NCBI GenBank assembly: GCA_028866155.1
Contig: JAGWIT010000002.1
Location: 1 to 43,985 of the forward strand
Length of the DNA: 43,985 nucleotides
Direction: 5' to 3'
Source: Patescibacteria group bacterium
Lineage (GTDB): Bacteria; Patescibacteriota; Minisyncoccia; Phycocordibacterales; SBAW01
The notes below the pieces were generated by a model. That model did no database searches, was not told the DNA's origin, and was given only the letters and a program-made list of their open reading frames with translations. This document shows positions 3,795 to 38,195 of the stretch, piece after piece; the stretch's first letter is position 1, and every line of letters begins with the position of its first letter. The position numbers and the translations under genes were made by a program.

Positions 3795-4541
3795 TTAGGC
3801 GCTCAAGTACTTTTCAAACCCGCTGGTCATGGTGGCGATACCTTCTTTGTCTATCATATAGGCTTCGAAGCCTTTGAGTTGCTCTATAAACTTGATGCCG
3901 TCACGCCCCATCGCGAACGCGGCGGTGGCGAAGCGGTCGGCCTCAAGCACGTCGGGGCCGACGACGGTGATGCTCACTATGTCACTGAGCTTTTCTTCGG
4001 GCGCATGCGGATTATAAATATGCGCTCCGCGCAGATAAGAACCCGAGGTTGCGACTCCCGCGCCTTTGGGGTATATCACTTTAACTATCTTGTCCTGCTC
4101 AAAAGGATGGCGGATGCCCACGCTCCACTCTTTATCCTCGCTAGTGCGCCCGCTTGTCGCGATATCGCCGCCCGCTTCGACATAAAAATTTGTATGTCCC
4201 AACTCGTACAGAAGATTCGCCGCATTGTGGATGGCCCAACCTTTAACGATGCCCGACGGATCGAGGGAGCCATCGGGTTTTGTAATATCAAAATAGCCGC
4301 TGCTCTCTTTTTTTGTCTTTTCGGCGAGCGCAAAGACCTCTTTCATTTCATTGCTGTAATTTTGGAGGAGCGTTTCGCCACGGTTGATGAGCGATATTTC
4401 GCTGGTGTCTTTGTAGGTGCTAAAGCGTTCGTCGACGGCGGTAAAGTAGGCGAACACTTTCTCTATCGCGTGTGCCGCGTTATCACCACCAACTATCTCG
4501 ACGGTAATGGGCATGCCCATAATTGACCGCCCTTCGCGCAT
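3795..4541 (-). CDS. apbE: FAD:protein FMN transferase (ApbE family)
   Basis: 248-aa ORF with ApbE-like blocks (SEISLINRG, SGYFDIT, GIVKGWA, EAGGDIATSG, VATSGSY). Confidence 0.8.
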   Translation of the reverse strand: MREGRSIMGMPITVEIVGGDNAAHAIEKVFAYFTAVDERFSTYKDTSEISLINRGETLLQNYSNEMKEVFALAEKTKKESSGYFDITKPDGSLDPSGIVKGWAIHNAANLLYELGHTNFYVEAGGDIATSGRTSEDKEWSVGIRHPFEQDKIVKVIYPKGAGVATSGSYLRGAHIYNPHAPEEKLSDIVSITVVGPDVLEADRFATAAFAMGRDGIKFIEQLKGFEAYMIDKEGIATMTSGFEKYLSA

Positions 4542-5036: not shown

Positions 5037-5783
5037 TCATACTTGGATTCGCGAGAAGAAATAGCTTCCCAGCGCCAAAAATACGAGCGTAAAGCCGCTG
5101 AGCACGATAAGATCGAGCCCGAGGCCGTAGGTCGTTGCATTGATGAGGAAGTAGCGCAGTGCGTCGACGCCGTAGGAGAGCGGATCTATGGCCGCCACCA
5201 GCTTGAGCGCCTCCGGCACGGCGCTCAGCGGGAAGAGCGCTCCGGAGAGAAAGAACAGCGGCATCACGAGGAAGTTCATCACCAGTTGGAACCCCTGCAT
5301 GTCGCGCATGAGCGAGGCAACCATCATGCCGAGCGCCGAGAAGAGCGTTCCGATAAAAAGCATGATGAGTATAGCGGGTGCTATCAGCAGCCACGACACG
5401 GGATGAAAGCCGATGAGAAGCGTCATCACGAGGACGATGCATCCCTGCAGGGTCGCGACCGTAGCGCCCCCGAGCGTGCGGCCGAACATAATGGCTATGC
5501 GCGGCACCGGAGCGACCAGCGTCTCTTTAAGAAAGCCGAACTGCCTATCCCAGATGACCTGCATGCCGTTGAATATAGAGGTAAAGATGATGCTCATGCC
5601 GATGATGCCGGGCGCCAAAAAGTTTATGTAGTTTCCCTGTCCCGCGGCGGCAAAGACCGCACCGAATCCGAATCCGAACGAAACCAAAAAGAGGAGAGGC
5701 TGCATTAAAGAGCCGACGATGCGCGATTTGGAGCGCGAAAAGCGCTTTATCTCGCGGAGCCACATGATGTATACAGCGTTCAT
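5037..5783 (-). CDS. ABC-2 type transporter permease
   Basis: 248-aa ORF with about six hydrophobic helices, lying immediately downstream of an ABC ATPase gene. The overall pattern is DrrB/ABC-2-like. Confidence 0.85.
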   Translation of the reverse strand: MNAVYIMWLREIKRFSRSKSRIVGSLMQPLLFLVSFGFGFGAVFAAAGQGNYINFLAPGIIGMSIIFTSIFNGMQVIWDRQFGFLKETLVAPVPRIAIMFGRTLGGATVATLQGCIVLVMTLLIGFHPVSWLLIAPAILIMLFIGTLFSALGMMVASLMRDMQGFQLVMNFLVMPLFFLSGALFPLSAVPEALKLVAAIDPLSYGVDALRYFLINATTYGLGLDLIVLSGFTLVFLALGSYFFSRIQV

Positions 5784-12633: not shown

Positions 12634-13812
12634 ATGGAACCGCTGGCTTCGCAGATTCGCCCGAAAACGCTCGATGAGTTTGTCGGACAGGAGCATTTGG
12701 TGGGGAAGGGGAAACCGCTTCGGGAAGCGATTGAGGGTAAGCATTTATTCTCCTTTATATTGTGGGGCCCGCCGGGGTCGGGCAAGACCACTTTGGCGCG
12801 CATTTATGCCAATGCTTTGAATGCCGATTTTTATGAATTGTCGGCCGTCGATTCGGGCAAGGATGATATAAAAAATATTTTGGGTATAGCAAAGGTCAGA
12901 CCTTCGCACAACAAAGGTCAGACCTTTGCTTTTCCTGAGAAACCAAAGGTTTTATTTGTAGACGAGATACACCGCTTTAACAAAGCACAGCAGGATTTTC
13001 TTTTGCCCTTTGTCGAGCGGGGCGACCTCACGCTCATTGGCGCTACAACTGAGAATCCGAGCTTCGAGATCATCGGCGCTTTGCTTTCGCGCTCGCGCGT
13101 TTTTGTGCTCAATGAACTGACCGAAAAGGACATGGAGAAAATAATTGTTCGCGCGGCAAAGGAGCTGAAGACAAAAATAAACAAAGAAGCAAAGCAATGG
13201 CTCATCCAAATGGCCGGCGGCGATGCGCGGCAGGCGATAGGGGTTTTAGAGGGCGCGCACCAGCTCTATGGAAAACTCGACCTCGATTCGCTCAAAGAAA
13301 CAATACAGAGCAAGCATCTGCGCTACGACAAAAAAGGCGAGGAGCATTACAACACCATCTCCGCATTTATTAAATCGATGCGCGCCTCCCAGCCTGATGC
13401 CGCGCTTTATTATCTGGCAAGGATGGTCGAGGCGGGCGAGGACCCGCTGTTTATAGCGCGGCGCATGGTGGTGTTTGCGAGCGAAGACATCGGCCTCGCG
13501 GTGCCGACCGCGCTCGTCGTTGCCAACGCGGTCTTTTGCGCGTGCGAAACCATAGGCTACCCCGAGTGCGCGATAAACCTCGCGCACGGCGTGGCTTATT
13601 TAGCGGAGTGCAAAAAATCGCGCAAAAGTTATGATACCTATTTTGAAGCGGTCGCCGACGTCAAAGAGCTCGGTAACCTGCCAATCCCGATGCGTGTGCG
13701 CAACGCGCCAACCAAACTGATGAAAGATTTAGGCTATCACAAAGGGTACAAATTGTATGACAAAGAATCCTATTTGCCCGACAAATTAAAAGGGAAGAAG
13801 TATTTGAAATAA
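12634..13812 (+). CDS. rarA: Replication-associated recombination protein A (AAA+ ATPase RarA/MgsA)
   Basis: Walker A GPPGSGKTT, Walker B/sensor FVDEIHRFNKAQQD, IGATTENPSFE, and the C-terminal MgsA block (ARRMVVFASEDIG). The start is set at the ATG at 12634, after the stop of the preceding gene. Confidence 0.9.
   Translation: MEPLASQIRPKTLDEFVGQEHLVGKGKPLREAIEGKHLFSFILWGPPGSGKTTLARIYANALNADFYELSAVDSGKDDIKNILGIAKVRPSHNKGQTFAFPEKPKVLFVDEIHRFNKAQQDFLLPFVERGDLTLIGATTENPSFEIIGALLSRSRVFVLNELTEKDMEKIIVRAAKELKTKINKEAKQWLIQMAGGDARQAIGVLEGAHQLYGKLDLDSLKETIQSKHLRYDKKGEEHYNTISAFIKSMRASQPDAALYYLARMVEAGEDPLFIARRMVVFASEDIGLAVPTALVVANAVFCACETIGYPECAINLAHGVAYLAECKKSRKSYDTYFEAVADVKELGNLPIPMRVRNAPTKLMKDLGYHKGYKLYDKESYLPDKLKGKKYLK
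12888..12930. repeat. Palindromic element, family A (aaaggtcagaccttt type), in frame inside rarA
   Basis: agcaaaggtc-a-gacctt-cgcacaac-aaggtc-a-gacctttgct. The outer 10 bp and inner 6 bp are self-complementary. It shares aggtcagacctttg with the atpG palindrome. Confidence 0.75.
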
Positions 13813-14148: not shown

Positions 14149-14685
14149 ATGAACACCGAAACGATAGTTTTTGGCGGCGGGTGTTTTTGGTGCACCGAGG
14201 CTATTTTTTTGATGCTGAAAGGTGTCCGCAGCGTCGAGCCTGGATACTCGGGACCTGCCTATAAAACCGAAAGAGGGCCGAGCTACGAAGAAGTCTCGAC
14301 TGGAGAGACGCCGTACGTAGAGTCGGCAAAAATTGTGTACAACCCGGACGCCATTGCCTTTCCCGAACTTCTGCAGGTCTATTTTGGCAGCCACGACCCG
14401 ACGACGCCGAACCGTCAGGGCAGTGATGTCGGGCCGCAGTACCGCTCGGCAATCTTTTATACGACACTGCGGCAAAAAGAGATGAGCGAGATATACATCG
14501 GCAATATCCAAAAAAGCCTAAGCAAGCCCATTATCACCACCGTTGAGCCGCTCGTGATGTTTTACCGAGCTGAGGACTATCATCAAAAATATTACGAAAA
14601 CCACAAGACGGCAGGCTACTGCCAATTAATCATTGCGCCCAAAGTCGAGAAAGTGCAGGAGAAGTTCAAAAATCTGTTAAAGTAG
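14149..14685 (+). CDS. msrA: Peptide-methionine (S)-S-oxide reductase
   Basis: 178 aa with the catalytic GGGCFWCTEA motif and conserved DPTTPNRQG.D.G.QYRS and YHQ.Y blocks. Confidence 0.95.
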   Translation: MNTETIVFGGGCFWCTEAIFLMLKGVRSVEPGYSGPAYKTERGPSYEEVSTGETPYVESAKIVYNPDAIAFPELLQVYFGSHDPTTPNRQGSDVGPQYRSAIFYTTLRQKEMSEIYIGNIQKSLSKPIITTVEPLVMFYRAEDYHQKYYENHKTAGYCQLIIAPKVEKVQEKFKNLLK

Positions 14686-14690
14686 ACGAA

Positions 14691-14753
14691 GTAAAAATAC
14701 TTTTCTCCGGAGAGATGAACGGGACCCCAACTCCTGCAAAAAGTATTTTTTAC
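14691..14753. repeat. Hairpin element, family C copy 1 (34-nt conserved core with 14-bp arms)
   Basis: The arms gtaaaaatactttt / aaaagtattttttac flank the core ctccggagagatgaacgggaccccaactcctgca. The same core recurs at 15623-15656. Confidence 0.8.
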
Positions 14754-14760
14754 TTTGTCT

Positions 14761-15177
14761 ATGACTCGTGAAGAATTTGAGAAATTGGTTGAGGAGGAGT
14801 TTCCGCGCGCGGTGCCGGAGAAGTTTCATCACCTCATCAAAAATGTAGGGTTTTTGGTTGAGGACGAACCTTCTTTGGAGCTTCGCAAGCAGGAGGGCCT
14901 GAGCGACAACGAAACCCTGCTTGGGCTTTACCACGGCGTGCCGGCAGTGGCCCGCGGCGACTTCTATGGCGTGGGAGGCACCTTGCCCGACACCATCACG
15001 CTGTTTCAACTTCCTATCGAAGAAGAAGCCAAGGCTCTCTCCGTAAGGTTGAACCTTACGGAGGAAGAAGCATTGTGCCGCGTCATCCGCGAAACGATTT
15101 GGCACGAGGTCGCGCATTACTTTGGTTACGATGAGCACCAGGTGCGGGATAGGGAAGATAAACGCAACGAAAAGTGA
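14761..15177 (+). CDS. Zincin-like metallopeptidase family protein (Zincin_1 / DUF1025 type)
   Basis: About 138 aa, with HEVAHYFG followed by acidic residues near the C-terminus. I prefer the ATG at 14761 to the TTG at 14755 used by the track. Confidence 0.75.
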   Translation: MTREEFEKLVEEEFPRAVPEKFHHLIKNVGFLVEDEPSLELRKQEGLSDNETLLGLYHGVPAVARGDFYGVGGTLPDTITLFQLPIEEEAKALSVRLNLTEEEALCRVIRETIWHEVAHYFGYDEHQVRDREDKRNEK

Positions 15178-15189
15178 TATATTAAAAGC

Positions 15190-15636
15190 ATGGAGCAAAA
15201 AATTTATTTGGCGCCGTTCTATTTGATAGCTGCGACCTTCATCGGGCTCGGCGACACATTGTTTCTTTCTTATTATGCATTTATTAATGCCATTCCATCT
15301 TGTGCCATCGGCGGGTGCGAGATAGTTCTCTCAAGCCCCTACTCGCACCCGTTTGGCGTGCCGTTCGGATATATAGGCCTTGTCTACTACGCCTACATGC
15401 TTGCGTTGGTGATTTTGCTGGTGATAGATCCGGCCTCAAAAGGCTTGCGTTTTGGCATACTCGCGTATACCGCAATAGGATTGCTGTGCTCAATAGGCTT
15501 TGAGCTCTTTCAATATTTCGTTATCGGGGCGCTTTGCATGTACTGCGCGATTTCAGCGCTCACGACATTGCTATTATTCTGCCTCGCCGTGTGGCATTGG
15601 AGGACTTCAAAAAAAGTCTTTGCTCCGGAGAGATGA
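15190..15636 (+). CDS. Vitamin K epoxide reductase (VKOR) family membrane protein
   Basis: 148 aa with four hydrophobic helices, a loop cysteine pair (SCAIGGC) and CMYC (CxxC) at the start of the last helix. Confidence 0.75.
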   Translation: MEQKIYLAPFYLIAATFIGLGDTLFLSYYAFINAIPSCAIGGCEIVLSSPYSHPFGVPFGYIGLVYYAYMLALVILLVIDPASKGLRFGILAYTAIGLLCSIGFELFQYFVIGALCMYCAISALTTLLLFCLAVWHWRTSKKVFAPER

Positions 15637-15675
15637 ACGAGACTCCAACTCCTGCACAAAGATTTTTAAAAGTCC
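15602..15675. repeat. Hairpin element, family C copy 2 (34-nt conserved core with imperfect arms of about 19-21 nt)
   Basis: The core ctccggagagatgaacgagactccaactcctgca (15623-15656) is 32/34 identical to copy 1. The arms ggacttcaaaaaaagtctttg / caaagatttttaaaagtcc are unrelated to the copy 1 arms. Confidence 0.8.
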
Positions 15676-16454
15676 TAATACGAAGGTCTGCGCGCCCAGC
15701 GGTACGTTCTATACAAGAGATAAAAGAAAACAATAACGAGCAGGGGATAGAAGACGCCGGCGTTGCTGATGAGGAATTGCAAGATGGTCAGCGCATATAA
15801 GTAGAGCGTCCACAGGACGAACCAAAAATCTCCCATCGTGTTGGGCAGCGCGCTTGTCGAGGTCCCTTCGACTAAGCCGGTCAGCCCGTGGTTGGCCAAA
15901 TTATTTTTTGCGACACCGAGTTGGCTGTCGATGAGCTTCGACATACTCCCTCGCAGAGAATCGACAGTCGAAAAAATCGGCTGGCTGAGGCTGGCGGCCT
16001 GCGGCGAGATGCCCGAGATATCTTGTTGAATTTGCGCCGACGACTCGACCGCGGCGGGTTGTGAAACAGACGCGGGCGCGGTTGTTGCCGGCACCGGTTT
16101 TGGATTGATGACGAAGACCTCGGTCTCTTGCTCTACGGTGACGCCGCCGCTGTCCTCAAGCGCGGCTTTAATGGTGTGCGACCCGGCAAGCGGCTTCCAG
16201 GGCAGGGACACCGTTTGCGCCCCGCCGGCGGCCATCGAGATCGGCCGCGTGCCTATTTGAGCGCTTCCGTCGCTCACCACGAGCGTGCCGGCGAACGCCG
16301 CCCCGGCATCGTTTGAGAGCACGGCATAAATCTGCACCGCGTCGCCCTCGGTGACCGGCGACTTCGAAAGAAAGAGCGACTGCTTTGCGAACCCCGCTGC
16401 AAACACAAGCGAGGGGAGCAAAAACAAAGCGCTCAAAAATAAGAGCTTTTTCAT
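15675..16454 (-). CDS. Hypothetical exported protein with C-terminal membrane helices
   Basis: 259-aa ORF with an N-terminal signal peptide (MKKLLFLSALFLLPSLVFA) and two C-terminal hydrophobic helices. Confidence 0.6.
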   Translation of the reverse strand: MKKLLFLSALFLLPSLVFAAGFAKQSLFLSKSPVTEGDAVQIYAVLSNDAGAAFAGTLVVSDGSAQIGTRPISMAAGGAQTVSLPWKPLAGSHTIKAALEDSGGVTVEQETEVFVINPKPVPATTAPASVSQPAAVESSAQIQQDISGISPQAASLSQPIFSTVDSLRGSMSKLIDSQLGVAKNNLANHGLTGLVEGTSTSALPNTMGDFWFVLWTLYLYALTILQFLISNAGVFYPLLVIVFFYLLYRTYRWARRPSY

Positions 16455-18469: not shown

Positions 18470-19744
<1,275 letters not shown>

Positions 19745-19753
19745 AGTGTCTTG

Positions 19754-21895
19754 ATGGCAGGTTTTAAAATCAAGTCAAACTACAAGCCCGCGGGAGACCA
19801 GCCGAAGGCCATTGAAGCTTTGGTAAAGGGACTCAAAGCGGGAGAGCGGCACCAAACTTTGCTCGGCGTCACCGGCTCTGGCAAGACTTTTACCATTGCC
19901 AACGTCATCGAGGCGGTACAAAAACCGACGCTCGTCATCGCGCACAATAAAACGCTCGCCGCCCAGCTGGCGCAGGAGTATCGCGAGTTTTTCCCCGGTA
20001 ACGCGGTGCACTATTTCGTCTCCTACTACGACTACTATCAGCCCGAGGCGTACATCCCGCACAGCGACACCTATATCGAGAAGGAGGCGCAGATTAACGA
20101 AGAGATAGATCGCCTGCGCCACGCGTCGACCCAGGCTTTGCTCACGCGCCGCGATGTCATCATAGTCGCGAGTGTTTCGTGCATCTATGCGCTCGGCTCG
20201 CCCGAAGAGTATCGCAAGGTGCACCTTGAGCTGGGCGCCGGCGTCAAAAAAAATCGCACCGAGCTTATCCGCGAATTAATAAATTTGTATTTTGAGCGCA
20301 CGACTGCCGACCTCACGCCGGGCACCTTTCGCGCGCTCGGCAACAGCGTTGAAATAATGCCGACCGGCGAGCGCGTGCTTTACCGAGTCGAGTTCGCCCA
20401 TTCGACGGGTTCAGGGCAAGGAGGCGATATCATTGAGCGCGTGCGCGTCATCGACGCCGTGACCCGCGCAGAAAAGGAGTCTTCTGCCTCGCTGTTTCTT
20501 TTTCCCGCCAAGCACTACGTCACGCCCGAGGACGAGCGCGCACGGGCTATTGGCGACATCAAACATGAGCTTCGCGAGCAGCTCGCCAAATTTGAGCGCG
20601 CCGGTAAAGTGCTCGAAGCCGAGCGCCTCAAGCGCCGCACCAACCACGACCTGGCGCTCATCCGCGAGATAGGCTACTGCAACGGGATAGAAAATTATTC
20701 GCGCCACTTCGACGGGCGCAAGCCCGGTGAACCGCCGTATTCATTGCTCGAATATTTTCCGCACACTAAAGGCGGCAAACCCGACTTTTTGACCGTCATC
20801 GACGAGTCGCATGTGACCGTACCGCAGATCGGAGGCATGTACGAGGGCGACCGCGCGCGCAAGCAAAATTTGATCGAGTTCGGCTTTCGCTTGCCGAGCG
20901 CGATAGACAATCGGCCCTTGCAGTTTAGCGAATTTGAGGAGCGCATCGGGCAAACCATTTACACCTCGGCGACGCCGGGCGTATTCGAGCGCGGGGCGAG
21001 CGGCACACAAGTGGTCGAGCAGATAATTCGCCCAACCGGCCTGGTAGACCCCGAGATACTGGTGCGCCCGGTAACAGGCGTTTCGGCGAAGTCTGCTTCC
21101 CGCTCATCCTCCGTCGAGGACTCCATCGGCGTTCACGTCCAGCAAACTTCGCCTTCGCATGGCTATCCGGGTCAGGTACAGGATTTTTTAGAAGAAGCCG
21201 AAAAGGTGATTGCAAAAGGGGCGCGCGTGATGGTCACGACGCTCACCAAAAAAATGGCCGAGGATCTTTCGGATTATCTTAAGGAGAAAAAAATCAAAGC
21301 CGCCTACCTGCACAGCGATGTCGAGACGCTCGAGCGCATTACGACGCTCACCGACCTGCGCAAGGGCGCGTTCGATGTTTTGGTAGGGGTCAACCTGCTT
21401 CGCGAGGGGTTGGATTTGCCCGAAGTCGAGTTGGTCGCGATACTCGACGCCGACAAAGAGGGTTTCTTGCGCAGTGAGACGTCGCTTATCCAGACCATCG
21501 GCCGCGCCGCGCGCAACGTCAACGGCCGCGTGATTTTGTACGCCGACCAAATGACCAGCTCGCTCGAAAAGGCGATAGGCGAGACCAATCGCCGCCGCGC
21601 GGTACAGGAGGCCTACAACAAAAAGCACGGTATCACGCCGCAGAGCATTAAAAAAGCAATAAAAGATATTACCGAAGAGCTCAGAAGCGAGCACGGCAAA
21701 GCGGTCAAGGTGCTTTTGGATGTCGATCAAGAGCTCTACAAAAAGAACCCGCGCAAGTTCATTGCCGATAAGCGAAAAGCTATGGCCGAAGCAGTGCGTG
21801 ACCTCGACTTCGAAACCGCCGCGATTTTGAGGGACGAAATCTACTCCTTAAGCGGGCAGGGAATAACTGCCAACGCAAAAAAAGCAAAAAAGTAG
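19754..21895 (+). CDS. uvrB: Excinuclease ABC subunit B
   Basis: [10 protein letters not shown], Walker [13 protein letters not shown], helicase motifs, and the C-terminal UVR domain ([14 protein letters not shown]). I prefer the ATG at 19754 to the TTG at 19751. Confidence 0.95.
21085..21153. repeat. Hairpin element related to family B, in frame inside uvrB
   Basis: The arms ggcgaagtctgc / gcaaacttcgcc pair over 12 bp with one mismatch. The junctions tctgcttcc and gcgttcacgtccagca resemble the uvrC copy junctions atctgcttcc and gcgctcactccagca. Confidence 0.6.
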
Positions 21896-22034: not shown

Positions 22035-22051
22035 CGGATGTCAGCTTGTCG

Positions 22052-22081
22052 GGCCGCGTTGCAACATACGCGGCCTTTTTG
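22052..22081 (+). terminator. Intrinsic terminator
   Basis: The stem ggccgcgt / acgcggcc with the loop tgcaacat, followed by ttttt. Confidence 0.6.
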
Positions 22082-22100
22082 TGCAAACTTGGCACAAGCA

Positions 22101-22109
22101 TGCTATAAT
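22101..22109 (+). promoter_or_regulatory. Candidate extended -10 promoter element upstream of uvrA
   Basis: tgctataat matches TGnTATAAT and lies about 50 nt before the uvrA ATG. I see no good -35 element at canonical spacing. Confidence 0.4.
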
Positions 22110-22157
22110 CTGCGCATACCAACCCCTCGCGTACTGCGTGGGGATAAAACCGTTGCT

Positions 22158-24755
22158 ATGGAGGAAAAAATCACTATAAAAGGCGCCAAGACGCACAACC
22201 TCAAGAATATTTCTTTGACGTTGCCGCGCAATAAGATGATACTGTTCACCGGACTCTCAGGTTCGGGGAAGTCGTCTTTGGCGTTCGACACTATTTTTGC
22301 CGAGGGCCAACGCCGCTATATCGAGTCGCTCTCGGCGTACGCGCGGCAATTTTTGCGCCAGATGCAAAAGCCCGACGTCGAGGAGATAACCGGCCTCTCG
22401 CCGGCGATATCCATCGACCAAAAGTCGCGCTCCAACAACCCGCGCTCGACCGTCGCGACGATTACCGAAATTTATGATTACCTGCGCATTCTTTATGCGC
22501 GCGTCGGCAAGCCGCACTGCTTGGTCTGCGGCCGCGAGATTAAAAAGCACAGCAACGAGGAGATAATCCAAAGCATCATTGAGTCGGTCTCTTCCCACGT
22601 GCCTAAAAAAACGCGAAAGGTGATGGGGGTTGAGCTGAGCGACGATGTCGTGCGCATCTACGCGCCGGTCGTTGTCGGCCGCAAAGGCGAATATTATCAA
22701 CTACTCTACGACCTCCTCGGCAAAGGCTTTGAAAAGGCCAAGATCGACGGCAAGCTCCTCAACCTGCGCGAGCGAGTCGAGCTGGCGCGCCACAAAAAGC
22801 ACGACATCGACGCTTTGGTGGATGAGATTTTGATTGCGGATTTTGCGCCTGCGCAAAAAGATATAAGCAGACAAAAAGCCGCGATTGAACGACTCTCCGA
22901 GGCGGTCGAGCGGGCTCTACAAGAAGCCGATGGATTGGTAAAGGTTGAGGAGGCCGGCGAAACGCGCATCGTGTCCTCAAAATTTATGTGTCCGTACGAC
23001 GGATTCTCATTCCCTGAGGTCGAGCCGCGGCTGTTTTCGTTTAACTCGCCGTATGGCGCGTGTCCTGCCTGCAACGGTTTGGGCACCAAGCATTTTTGGT
23101 CTGACGAGCCGTGCCCGGTGTGCCACGGCAAGCGCCTGCGACCCGAGGCTTTGAACGTGTTTCTCGGCAGCAAAATAAATATCGTTGATGTGACCAAACA
23201 ATCCATCGCCGACGCTTTCGAATTTTTTGACAATCTCGAACTCAACAAAAAAGACCAGGAGATATCGAAGACGGTCGTCAAAGAGATAACCGCGCGGCTG
23301 CGGTTTATGCTCGACGTTGGTTTGGATTATTTGACCCTCGACCGCCGCGCCAACACTTTGAGCGGCGGCGAGGCCCAGCGCATCCGCCTTGCCTCGCAGC
23401 TGGGCTCCGGCCTCGTGGGCGCTTTGTACGTGCTCGACGAACCGACCATCGGCCTGCATCAGCGCGACAACGAGCGGCTCATCAAAACGCTCGCCAATTT
23501 GCGCGACTTGGGCAACACCATCATCGTCGTTGAGCACGATGAGGACACCATTTACTCGGGCGATTATTTGGTCGACATCGGGCCGGGTGCCGGGGTGCAC
23601 GGCGGCAAAATAGTTGTCGCGGGCGAACTCGACAAACTGCTCACCGCCAAGAAAAACGACAGCGGCTCGGTGACACTCGCCTATCTGCGCGGCGAGAAGG
23701 CCATTGCCGTCCCCGCGGAGAGGCGAGAGAAGGACAAAGGCAAAATAGAGATTAAGGGCGGCAAGGCTTTCAATATAAAAAACTTGTCGGCCGAGATACC
23801 GCTCGGGCGGCTCGTCGCGGTGACCGGCGTGTCGGGGTCGGGGAAGTCGACCTTTCTATACGAAATCCTTTATCAAAACCTGCGCGCGCGTTTCGACAAG
23901 CGCTACCGCTCCAACAAAACGTACAATGCCGCGAAGGTTGTGGGCACCGAACATCTTTCGCGCGCGATACTCATCGACCAGTCGCCGATAGGGCGTACGC
24001 CGCGCTCAAACCCTGCCACGTATACCGGCGCGTTCAGTTTTATCCGCGACCTTTTTGCCTCTACCGGCGAGGCGCGCGCACGCGGATGGAAGGCCTCGCG
24101 CTTCTCCTTCAATGTGCCGCAGGCGCGCAGCAGCGGCCGCTGTGAGGCCTGCGAGGGCAACGGTGTAATCGCGGTCGAGATGCACTTTTTGCCGACGGTA
24201 TATGTCACCTGCGACGTGTGCAACGGCAAGCGGTTCATGAAAGAGACGCTCGAGGTGAAATATAAAAAGAAGAGCATCTACGATATTTTGACCATGACTA
24301 TCGAAGAAGCCATTCAATTCTTCAGCGATATCCCGGCGATTTATGACCGGCTCAAAACGCTTGAAGAGGTCGGCTTGGGGTATCTTGAGCTGGGGCAAAG
24401 TGCAACAACGCTCAGCGGCGGCGAGGCCCAGCGCGTCAAAATATCCGCCGAGCTCTACCGCCCGCATCTGCAAAAAACCATCTACCTGCTCGACGAGCCG
24501 ACGGTGGGGCTCCATTACGAGGACGTGCAAAAATTAATAGACATACTCAACCGGCTCGTGGCGGCAGGCAACACGGTCATCCTTATCGAGCACAACATGG
24601 ATGTGATAAAGAGCGCCGACTATCTGCTTGACTTCGGCCCCGAGGGAGGCGAAGGCGGCGGCAACCTCGTTGCCAAAGGTACGCCCGAGGAAGTGGCCAA
24701 CAACAAAAACTCCCACACCGGCAAATATCTCAAGCGCGTGCTAAAGGGAAGATAA
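22158..24755 (+). CDS. uvrA: Excinuclease ABC subunit A
   Basis: Two ABC modules ([10 protein letters not shown] and GVSGSGKST; LSGGEAQR occurs twice) and zinc-finger cysteines. The start is trimmed to the ATG at 22158 ([17 protein letters not shown]). Confidence 0.95.
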
Positions 24756-24760
24756 TCGCT

Positions 24761-26077
24761 ATGACATTGGAGGAATTTAAAAAGAAAGCAAAAAAGATGC
24801 CGGATGTCCCTGGCGTATATTTCTTTTTAGATAAACATAAAAAGATACTTTATATCGGGAAGGCTACGAGCCTGCGTGACCGCGTGCGTTCATACTTCGC
24901 GCCCGATTTGGCAGAAAGTCGCGGGCCGTGGATAGTCGCGATGATAGAAAAGGCAACATCAATAGACTGGCGGCAGACCGACTCGGTTTTGGAGGCTCTG
25001 ATTCTTGAGGCGAATCTCATCAAAAACTATAAGCCAAAGCACAACACCGACCTTAAAGACGACAAAAGCTGGAACTACGTTGTTATAACCAAAGAAGATT
25101 TCCCTAGGGTATTGTTGGTGAGAGGGAAAGAGCTGGCTCAGCAACAATCTGCTTCCGTTCCCCTTGGCAGTTCGCAGCGCTCACTCCAGCAGATTGTTGC
25201 TGAGCCCGCAAAGACGTTTGGGCCATTTCCACACGGGTTGCAACTCAAAGAAGCGATGCGCATCATCCGCAAAATTTTTCCCTATCGCGACACGTGCGTA
25301 CCGGCTCCCGAAATGATAGCCGCAGGGAAGAAGCCGAAAGCGTGCTTTAACCGGCACATCGGGTTGTGCCCGGGCGTATGCACGGGAGAAATCTCAAAAA
25401 CCGAATATCGAAAAATTATCCGCCGCATCACGCTGTTGTTTGAGGGCAAGAAGCAAACTTTGCTCAAGAGCCTCGAGCGTGATATGCACTTTGCGGCACG
25501 CAAAGAAATATTTGAAGAGGCTGCCAGCTTGCGAAAGCAAATTTTTGCATTGCAGCATATTCAAGATGTGTCGCTCATTAAAGATGAATACCGATATTAC
25601 GGGTTTACGAAATCCGTATCAAGCGGACGGATAGAAGCTTACGATATCGCGCATTTGGCCGGCTCGGCCAACGTCGGCGTTATGACGGTCGTCGAAGACG
25701 GCATGGCACAGAAAAGCGAATATCGAAAATTTAGGATACGTTCGGCAAAGGCGGGTGATGATGCGGGCGCTCTGCGCGAGATACTCTCGCGCCGCTTGGG
25801 CCACGAGTGGCCCTTGCCTCGACTCATCGCCGTCGACGGTGCCGCAGCTCAAATAAACGCCGCACAGCGCGTGCTCAAGGAGTATGGCGTCGGCATACCG
25901 GTCGTAGGGGTTGTTAAAGACGAAAAGCACCGCCCGCGTGAAATTCGCGGCCTACCTGCACGGGCAGGTGACCGCACTCAACTTGAGCGTGACATCCTCC
26001 TCGCTAACGCCGAAGCTCACCGCTTTGCGATAACCTACCACCGCAAGCGCTCAAGAAGAGACTTGACAATTAAATAA
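24761..26077 (+). CDS. uvrC: Excinuclease ABC subunit C, short form lacking the C-terminal (HhH)2 domain
   Basis: A GIY-YIG domain (GVYFFLD...ILYIGKA), a UVR domain (FEEAASLRKQIFALQ) and an endonuclease domain (IEAYDIAHL...). The ORF ends right after HRFAITYHRK, at 438 aa. Confidence 0.9.
   Translation: MTLEEFKKKAKKMPDVPGVYFFLDKHKKILYIGKATSLRDRVRSYFAPDLAESRGPWIVAMIEKATSIDWRQTDSVLEALILEANLIKNYKPKHNTDLKDDKSWNYVVITKEDFPRVLLVRGKELAQQQSASVPLGSSQRSLQQIVAEPAKTFGPFPHGLQLKEAMRIIRKIFPYRDTCVPAPEMIAAGKKPKACFNRHIGLCPGVCTGEISKTEYRKIIRRITLLFEGKKQTLLKSLERDMHFAARKEIFEEAASLRKQIFALQHIQDVSLIKDEYRYYGFTKSVSSGRIEAYDIAHLAGSANVGVMTVVEDGMAQKSEYRKFRIRSAKAGDDAGALREILSRRLGHEWPLPRLIAVDGAAAQINAAQRVLKEYGVGIPVVGVVKDEKHRPREIRGLPARAGDRTQLERDILLANAEAHRFAITYHRKRSRRDLTIK
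25135..25206. repeat. Hairpin element, family B, in frame inside uvrC (18-bp perfect arms with a 36-nt core, opposite orientation to the tgt copy)
   Basis: ggctcagcaacaatctgc (25135-25152) pairs with gcagattgttgctgagcc (25189-25206). The core is ttccgttccccttggcagttcgcagcgctcactcca. Confidence 0.85.
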
Positions 26078-31088: not shown

Positions 31089-31188
31089 CAAAACTCTTTT
31101 TATTGCTATATTTTTACCCATTGGTGATACGCAGTGTTGGGATGTCTTATAGTGCATTTAGTGCATTGCGCGCCATCGGAAACAGAGT

Positions 31189-31259
31189 CGGGATGTCTTA
31201 TAGTGGCATTATACGCGCTTCGGGTGCGCGAAACCCGAGTTCGATTCTCGGCATCCCGA
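31189..31259 (+). tRNA. tRNA-Pro (anticodon CGG) with an atypical AT-only D-arm
   Basis: The acceptor stem is cgggatg/catcccg. The anticodon stem-loop is cgcgc-ttcgggt-gcgcg, with G37. The T-arm is ccgag-ttcgatt-ctcgg. The D-stem can only be drawn as tata/tata with non-standard spacing. Confidence 0.65.
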
Positions 31260-31304
31260 CTCTGTTTCTGAAAATGTAAATGGGTGCAGGAGTGTTATGA
31301 GCCG

Positions 31305-35898: not shown

Positions 35899-38195
<2,297 letters not shown>

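Follow-up and report, generated by a model that had tools for sequence, protein, structure and literature searches.

A conserved palindromic loop with variable, probably host-templated stems in uvrC and tgt of Paceibacterota

The 43,985-nt stretch analysed here (the window) comprises positions 1 to 43,985 of the forward strand of contig JAGWIT010000002.1, from a Patescibacteria group bacterium (assembly GCA_028866155.1), and its uvrC gene carries a 72-nt hairpin in frame. In this hairpin GGCTCAGCAACAATCTGC (25135-25152) is perfectly complementary to GCAGATTGTTGCTGAGCC (25189-25206), which gives arms of 18 bp; counting the adjacent T/A pair lengthens the helix to 19 bp, and further extension gives 22 bp at 95% pairing. 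By chance, 44 kb should contain about 6e-5 inverted repeats of 18 perfectly paired bp whose spacer is at most 90 nt. The hairpin translates as AQQQSASVPLGSSQRSLQQIVAEP, an insert of 24 aa without intein blocks. A second hairpin lies in tgt, and the core of the uvrC copy (25153-25188) is the reverse complement of tgt 18847-18882 at 32 of 36 positions, with four mismatches. A preliminary description of this DNA had reported the perfect arms, the in-frame 72-nt unit and the inverted core with its four substitutions, and we reproduced each of these; its remark that the element is tolerated in either orientation relative to translation also held. The likeness between the two genes survives alignment and is longer than the 36 nt then noted, with an inverted match of 46 nt at 87% identity between tgt 18842-18887 and uvrC 25148-25193, and the core match was found in none of 100 shuffles. 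The window contains only these two copies of the core, and the arm sequences do not recur elsewhere in it.

The arms of the two copies had been described as sharing nothing. This stands for the outer 12-13 bp, which are unrelated (best alignment 11/17, p = 0.13 against shuffled arms), and fails for the inner 5 bp, which are common to both copies with one compensated change (TCTGC/GCAGA vs TCTCC/GGAGA). The resulting anatomy, a shared 46-nt unit between copy-specific outer arms, is set out in Table 1. In an AlphaFold model of the window UvrC the insert (residues 123-146) forms a loop between two strands with a predicted local distance difference test (pLDDT) score below 50, and on this model it appears to sit in a permissive, low-confidence loop.

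Table 1. Coordinates of the hairpins in uvrC and tgt (positions in the window).
Feature	Positions	Strand	Description
uvrC	24761..26077	+	438 aa, from the open reading frame (ORF) list; host of the element; homologues with Pfam GIY-YIG, UvrC_M, UVR and UvrC_RNaseH
Outer left arm, uvrC copy, GGCTCAGCAACAA	25135..25147		Site-specific and probably host-derived; encodes (L)AQQQ; unrelated to the tgt arm; aligns with native AQ.. of uninserted relatives
Conserved 46-nt unit, uvrC copy	25148..25193	-	5-bp inner stem TCTGC/GCAGA plus 36-nt core 25153-25188; motif GCTGCGARCKGCCAAGG on the minus strand; translated SASVPLGSSQRSLQQ
Outer right arm, uvrC copy, TTGTTGCTGAGCC	25194..25206		Exact reverse complement of 25135-25147; perfect pairing
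Conserved 46-nt unit, tgt copy (gene 18479-19744, +)	18842..18887	+	Opposite orientation to the uvrC copy; core 18847-18882
Whole tgt hairpin	18830..18899		17-bp perfect arms CAGGCACCGGAGTCTCC (18830-18846) and GGAGACTCCGGTGCCTG (18883-18899)

The hairpin in uvrC belongs to a dispersed family of small palindromic repeats in Paceibacterota, ultra-small bacteria of the Candidate Phyla Radiation (CPR). We scanned 185,579 species genomes for the 20-nt motif GCTGCGARCKGCCAAGGKGA and obtained 30 stretches, 18 in six Patescibacteria metagenome-assembled genomes (MAGs) and 12 in unrelated phyla, the latter being about the chance expectation. The richest MAG has 17 exact matches on seven contigs, representing at least 14 distinct sites. 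When the scan, the window and related loci (designated L with a number below) are combined, there are 31 distinct CPR copies, with hairpins of 62-78 nt and perfect stems of 7-26 bp (median 17), whereas stems are only 4-8 bp long in the chance matches from other phyla. Perfect hairpins were also counted irrespective of the motif (stem of at least 12 bp, loop of 16-64 nt): 870 kb of CPR DNA yielded 76 distinct ones, about 40 of them with family A or family B loops, as against one in 93 kb of non-CPR chance loci. The closest homologues of the window UvrC and Tgt carry the names Candidatus Paceibacterota, Adlerbacteria and Parcubacteria; a look-up of the exact proteins gave nothing for Tgt, and for UvrC its sole match was a Logan contig of 2 kb that is identical to the window.

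Across the family, the arms of non-orthologous coding copies all differ, and the inner stem that they share is only 5-8 bp. In one intergenic subfamily, whose loop is 26 nt, the inner stem is constant (ATTTTG/CAAAAT) and the A-rich arms, 18-26 bp long, resemble one another in part, so the arms are not uniformly unrelated. Arm conservation among many copies, which the preliminary description would have read as the mark of an ordinary transposon, is thus found in part, in this subfamily with its ATTTTG inner arm and in a sister family, B1. Wherever a copy is coding, the long host ORF stays open (258-731 aa), and the insert always reads ..AASCQGE.. when the core is in sense or ..LGSSQR.. when it is antisense, both of these frames being hydrophilic and free of stops; a second frame, open in each orientation by hand check, is not used by the coding copies. 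Predicted proteins from many assemblies contain the inserts. That the frame is kept and stops are absent in all coding copies argues that the insert is probably translated.

We compared 120 UvrC and 120 Tgt homologues (240 in total) at the two insertion sites. The UvrC loop between RGKEL and TFGPFPHG holds inserts in about half of the 120 aligned sequences; several share the core peptide (H/P)LGSSQR(E/S) and differ in their arm peptides, and others have cores such as RDEREPYS, SRAPVHLSG, AGRRGDA and LRGDKRHPF, among more. The Tgt loop between SKF(L) and (Y/F)DE(E/D)LATSHG receives the same core families, in both orientations. Both sites are hotspots for several insert families in Paceibacterota.

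The length of these loops does not agree with the earlier view that the entire unit, both arms included, was inserted. Deleting all 72 nt leaves KELAKT, six residues, between RG and FGPFP, whereas this spacing is at least 11 residues in all of about 190 relatives and 12-15 in uninserted close relatives. Length classes of UvrC differ by 15-17 aa rather than 24, and the Tgt spacers are likewise quantised, with peaks at 14 aa (n = 39) and 28-30 aa (n = 30). Taken together, 12-15 native residues and class steps of 15-17 residues mean that about 46-51 nt were gained and that the outer 12-13 bp of the arms are host sequence. A direct comparison is provided by L114, a syntenic relative on a 518-kb contig that lacks both inserts (amino acid identity 82% for Tgt, 88% for UvrB, 90% for UvrA and 74% for UvrC), against which the net gain of the window is 48 nt for tgt and, for uvrC, about 45 nt. 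The net gain is therefore the size of the 46-nt unit and not that of the 70-72-nt hairpin.

One arm of the stem is host sequence. At the same uvrC site, the empty locus L033 and locus L037, filled by sister family B, share 33 identical nt that run into the left arm of L037; beyond the family's own conserved 15-bp arm TCCTGCAAAAGGGAG, the native 11 nt GCGCAGAAAGC recur there inverted on the right as CTTTACTGCGC. In L003 a 23-bp perfect left arm spans the universally conserved E-L codons of uvrC, and conserved E-L-A codons are the common start of the left arm in orthologous uvrC inserts and in those of other families. In the window, the left arm of the tgt copy (CAG GCA CCG GAG) aligns with the native CAG GCA TCA TCC GAA G of L114. 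In two of these comparisons (L033 against L037, and L114 against the tgt copy) the left arm is homologous to host sequence at an empty site. Copying of the adjoining host gene, as its reverse complement, into the outer stem would give two copies unrelated arms. By analogy with L037 and L033, with L003 and with the tgt copy, 25194-25206 is probably the copied side of the uvrC stem, which would make the template arm the upstream one in both window genes. The preliminary suggestion that arms are synthesised at insertion comes close to this, in that the outer arms are made locally and not inherited with the element.

At uvrC and tgt sites without an insert, inverted repeats measure only 4-7 nt, which rules out cores landing in pre-existing hairpins and indicates that the stems arise with or after insertion. 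No direct repeat flanks 21 of 24 copies, and the 1 nt seen in two copies and 2 nt in one are at chance level. We also considered whether EPAH of uninserted UvrC is a fossil arm complementary to ELAQ; the DNA of L116 does not support this.

Orthologous copies display mirrored divergence of the arms, flipping of the loop, fossil arms and conservation of the loop at the nucleotide level. In seven close pairs (L018/L019 four times, L083/L085, L088/L093 and window/L112), arms differ at 17/119 positions and loops at 4/224 (Fisher p = 1e-5), or at 2/84 for loop positions outside the search motif (p = 0.003 against the arms). As both stems of each pair are perfect, every one of the arm changes is mirrored. 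Between L018 and L019 the loops differ at 1/140 positions, compared with 12% divergence in uvrB, the best conserved of three host genes compared (p = 3e-7), and the copy-specific flanks of the loop are conserved as well. Between the uvrC copy of the window and its closest orthologue, that of L112 (UvrC proteins 81% identical), there are two mirrored changes in the arms, and the loops differ at 3/34 positions. Conservation of this kind implies selection or a sequence-specific drive acting on the DNA, whatever its orientation.

The same comparisons reveal rearrangements. In tgt, L018 and L019 have near-identical arms around reverse-complemented loops, and the intergenic copies of L083 and L085 have the same arms with the core in opposite orientations. 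In the tgt copy of L019 the left arm has mutated, a new 13-nt right arm complementary to it adjoins the loop, and the former right arm now lies further out; the uvrC copies of L018 and L019 each retain a remnant of an older, reversed core and an older, diverged arm. Perfect palindromes without a core occur in frame at the same sites, with a 19-bp stem and 5-nt loop in uvrC of L080 and a 19-bp stem and 4-nt loop in tgt of L069 (478-543). RNAalifold gave double changes at 13/13 outer stem pairs and at 15/20 predicted pairs overall. The absence of G-U pairs in that analysis was not used as evidence, the input having been trimmed to perfect stems, which makes the point circular.

These data allow us to propose a small palindromic insertion unit and to ascribe the extension, re-perfection and flipping of its stem to template switching during replication, a reading to which we assign a probability of roughly 60%. 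The heritable unit would be about 46-50 nt, consisting of the loop with its invariant motif GCTGCGARCKGCCAAGG and its own stem of 5-8 bp; the long perfect stem would not be carried with it. Such a unit would land in a tolerant loop and survive where some 16 extra residues are tolerated, as in disordered loops of housekeeping proteins (UvrC, Tgt, UvrB), or in intergenic DNA. The nascent strand would then fold back at the unit's short stem and copy the adjoining host sequence (an intra-strand template switch, or quasi-palindrome extension), so that the near flank's reverse complement replaces the far flank and the total length hardly changes. Later rounds would re-perfect the stem after mutation in either arm, producing mirrored changes and a drifting stem sequence, and would occasionally invert the loop, leaving close relatives with the same arms and opposite core orientations. 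The anatomy of the two window copies, the family and its hotspots, the net gain, the host origin of one arm, the mirrored divergence, the flips, the fossil arms and the conservation of the loop are observed, whereas the fold-back step, the dispersal of the unit and the cause of loop conservation are inferences.

The proposal of fold-back copying draws on published signatures of template switching, namely one-step stems, homogenisation, inversion and expansion. Template switching has been reported to create perfect reverse-complement repeats and multi-base 'compensatory' changes in one step (PMC8794818), to homogenise arms and invert spacers in coding DNA (PMC8604942) and to expand arms (PMC13100816). 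Stem extension appears to be a generic process in these genomes, as the core-less palindromes and the variable but paired extension of the tRNA-Pro acceptor stem suggest. A bolder form of the proposal is that this is an undescribed kind of bacterial insertion element, with a short heritable loop (about 17-26 invariant nt and a 5-8-bp stem), a stem recruited from host DNA at the landing site by fold-back copying, in effect the target copied in inverted form, and continually re-perfected and flipped, and a loop whose constancy would be due to some sequence-specific function or process, for instance biased transmission, a binding protein or a dedicated enzyme; we suggest this only tentatively, at somewhat less than an even chance. 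Were it true, elements with host-derived stems would contribute heavily to the lineage-specific peptide insertions of essential CPR proteins.

Several points weigh against template switching as a full account. It explains the stems and not the arrival of the unit at new loci, and the genes of the window that were scanned, a small part of the genome, include no mobility enzyme (transposase, reverse transcriptase or Y1-transposase-like gene). The conservation of the loop far beyond that of surrounding genes is left unexplained, so that some function or drive at the sequence level is missing from the model; the copies were, however, found in part by motif match, which biases loop conservation upward. 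Net gains vary from +12 to +18 aa, and 'added' and 'overwritten' copy arms cannot be cleanly separated in every case. L037 and L003 also fit the addition of the core together with one new arm; this alternative, with one arm native and +53-58 nt gained, was set aside in general since the length histograms and the comparison with L114 fit about 46-51 nt better and favour overwriting or extension with little net gain, although mixed cases are possible. Lastly, no uninserted relative with more than 90% nucleotide identity to the window was found. The comparison with uninserted relatives that had been suggested for defining the insertion boundaries gave a gain of about 45 nt in uvrC from L114; both uvrC arms resemble the native consensus (AQQ.. 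and ..EPA.), and either may be the native one.

A functional RNA or DNA structure (an RNase III or regulatory site, or a protein-binding cruciform), in which selection keeps pairing and loop while the arms change by compensation, would account for loop nucleotide conservation far above that of the surrounding coding DNA, synonymous positions included. It would also fit the persistence of perfect stems where host proteins are only 72-80% identical, the covariation of the inner loop stem (CTCAC/GTGAG vs TTTGC/GCAAA in L088) and folding energies far below those of shuffles, the z-scores of the hairpin being -5.4 to -5.9 on both strands. We nevertheless regard it as unlikely. Close relatives carry the loop in opposite orientations with respect to the transcript, which makes a function in the mRNA sense improbable, and the reading frames that hold copies are essential, so that cleavage or stalling there would come at a cost. 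Arms that have decayed, and old arms displaced beside new perfect ones, look like repeated copying rather than stepwise compensation, and core-less palindromes occupy the same sites. Nor is there a match in Rfam 15, which at the gathering threshold finds only tRNAs in the whole window and at a permissive threshold gives only chance miRNA-like matches at the locus (18 bits vs a gathering score of 57). The strict pairing-only selection entertained in the preliminary description is likewise not needed and poorly supported, the displaced arms, core-less palindromes and flips pointing to copying at the level of DNA. Selection on the loop could be compatible with an origin of the stems by template switching.

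Markedly less probable is biased transmission, resembling that of DNA uptake signals, or a trans-acting enzyme that re-copies the loop, with the stems as a by-product. The motif is conserved in any orientation, in coding and intergenic DNA, and within genes it lies in tolerant loops and fixed reading frames. Uptake sequences of Pasteurellaceae and Neisseria likewise lie in tolerant loops and fixed frames, and CPR bacteria rely on DNA uptake. Against this, the density is low, with two copies per 44 kb here and, in the richest MAG, 17 exact matches over seven contigs; several unrelated loop families coexist; and the conservation of copy-specific loop flanks argues against overwriting from a single master.

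An ordinary transposon of the type of a miniature transposable element with inverted repeats (MITE), repetitive extragenic palindrome (REP) or Rickettsia palindromic element (RPE), inserted as a complete 70-72-nt palindrome whose terminal repeats have since diverged, fares slightly worse again and is largely refuted. The family is multi-copy, dispersed and of the size of a small MITE; sister families have conserved arms, B1 with GCAAAAGGGAG (11-15 bp) and D with CCCGCCCGA; and the intergenic subfamily with the 26-nt loop shares its inner arm. The outer arms, however, are unrelated across non-orthologous copies and yet perfect within each. The left arm is homologous to the host at empty sites and takes in host codons that are conserved; on balance about 46-51 nt were gained, not 70-78; and a direct target duplication accompanies 0/24 copies. 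The preliminary description was thus right to doubt an ordinary MITE with terminal inverted repeats and target duplication. Chimeric inverted joins from amplification or assembly can practically be discounted: perfect inverted repeats are a known class of artefact and all data are metagenome assemblies, but orthologous copies occur in frame at the same codons in independent JGI, ENA, NCBI and Logan assemblies, with lineage-specific mirrored changes, and stems of 17-26 bp with loops of 24-48 nt fit inside single reads.

Among known systems, the RPEs reportedly described by Ogata et al. in 2000 are comparable in being small and palindromic, inserted in frame in genes and translated as extra surface peptides, present also between genes, found in a host with a reduced genome and without a known transposase. 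They differ in being about 100-150 bp and conserved throughout, stems included, whereas here some 46 nt are shared, the outer stem is host-derived, copies flip and the host belongs to the Patescibacteria. The small dispersed repeats (SDRs) of cyanobacteria, which Elhai et al. are said to have reported in 2008 as 21-27 nt long and mostly in HIP1 or heptamer contexts, resemble the present family as mobile-looking units of tens of nucleotides with a shared hairpin, compensatory changes and nested insertions. SDRs are not known to have long host-templated stems or to occupy in-frame hotspots in housekeeping proteins.

MITEs, REPs and bacterial interspersed mosaic elements (BIMEs) are similarly short, non-coding, multi-copy, hairpin-forming and mostly non-autonomous, and some MITEs are intragenic (PMC3184786, PMC2229807, PMC10969869); RPEs are also mentioned in this literature (PMC10969869, PMC3767692). 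MITEs have conserved terminal inverted repeats and target duplications, neither of which was found in this family. REPs have a conserved, GC-rich, imperfect palindrome with a GTAG head, are extragenic and have a REP-associated tyrosine transposase (RAYT) as partner, whereas here the stems are variable and perfect, many copies are intragenic and no Y1-transposase-like gene was seen among the window genes scanned. Template-switch quasi-palindromes share with our copies the reverse-complement copying that yields one-step stems, homogenised or expanded arms and inverted spacers (PMC8794818, PMC8604942, PMC13100816, PMC5453318). The published events are sporadic and involve arbitrary repeats, in contrast to a conserved multi-copy loop that recurs in the same protein loops across the phylum with stems of 17-26 bp. 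Palindromes and hairpin elements of mitochondrial genomes also place perfect inverted repeats in functional genes with both arms translated; the repeats of Nematomorpha differ in reaching up to 284 bp, lying in conserved protein regions and having no shared loop motif, and the hairpin elements of sponges in being intergenic (PMC6649704, PMC2800124).

In the literature searched we found no description of elements with a conserved mobile loop and a host-templated stem in CPR or Patescibacteria, nor of the combination of these two properties with recurrence at the same loops of essential proteins across the phylum. A repeat that is defined by its loop and borrows its stem from the host would be missed by repeat-finders and by definitions of MITEs that look for conserved ends and duplications. 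It offers a concrete and testable origin for lineage-specific insertions in CPR housekeeping proteins, where loops of UvrC, Tgt and UvrB are hit recurrently, and a natural system for template switching in which stem creation, repair and spacer inversion can be read from orthologues. The family also bears on how perfect RNA or DNA stems originate and are maintained without stepwise compensatory evolution, and it calls for caution in covariation analysis, given that copying yields 'perfect covariation' without selection on structure. The conservation of the loop may hint at a protein partner.

Both hairpins of Table 1 lie in a neighbourhood of housekeeping genes (FKBP, tgt, uvrB, uvrA, uvrC, an aminotransferase and ddl), and several further palindromes and insertions were seen there and in related loci. 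Family B, with the core CTCCGGAGAGATGAACGrGACyCCAACTCCTGCA, has two window copies that are 86% alike and have different arms: 14683-14761 lies between two plus-strand genes, and 15604-15676 replaces the last codons of a VKOR-family gene in comparison with L114. In many relatives family B is found in frame in UvrC and Tgt in both orientations, with the peptides RRDKHDPNS and SRAPVHLS. Family D (CCCGCCCGAACGGATGATCCCGTTCATTCGGGCGGG), with conserved arms and a length of 30-36 nt, occurs in uvrA and uvrC. There is also a 51-nt CCCGAC/GTCGGG multi-hairpin in uvrA and a 30-nt insert in the GIY-YIG region of uvrC.

The window uvrB gene has an in-frame hairpin of its own at 21085-21153, with 12-bp arms GGCGAAGTCTGC and GCAAACTTCGCC (one mismatch) around a 45-nt loop. 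It falls within 25 aa that are inserted relative to L114. Two family A copies occupy the same uvrB loop in L018 and L019, and no relative of the window's uvrB hairpin loop was found in the fetched loci. Relative to L114 the window has two further insertions, HSTGSGQG in UvrB (20399-20422) and APEMIAAG in UvrC (25304-25327). The longest ORF of uvrA includes a 40-aa N-terminal extension (22038-22157) that is missing from L114, and the true start is probably the ATG at 22158 (MEEKITIK).

Small palindromic inserts, namely those of family D, the CCCGAC/GTCGGG multi-hairpin and the 30-nt GIY-YIG insert, are polymorphic between relatives of 80-91% nucleotide identity, as at L036 (about 676-711) and L027 (about 5039-5068) vs L021, L054 (about 4118-4168) and L052 vs L051, L018 (10067-10096) vs L019, and L050 vs L045. 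The palindromic sequence AAAGGTCAGACCTTT(G) occurs in the window at 12883-12935 and 36535-36579, in one case as two direct repeats and in the other as a perfect hairpin of 21 bp around a 3-nt loop, and related AAGGTCGAACCTT palindromes are in frame in uvrC of L004, L051 and L057. At tRNA-Pro(CGG) (31189-31260), pairing between leader and trailer extends the acceptor stem to a 20-bp helix (95% paired, span 31176-31271). In nine genomes this extension measures 5-10 bp, its sequence varying while pairing is kept; it may serve as a signal for processing or be one more product of stem extension. The tRNA-Pro leader and the 5' part of the tRNA have a 23-nt near-duplicate at 31132-31154.

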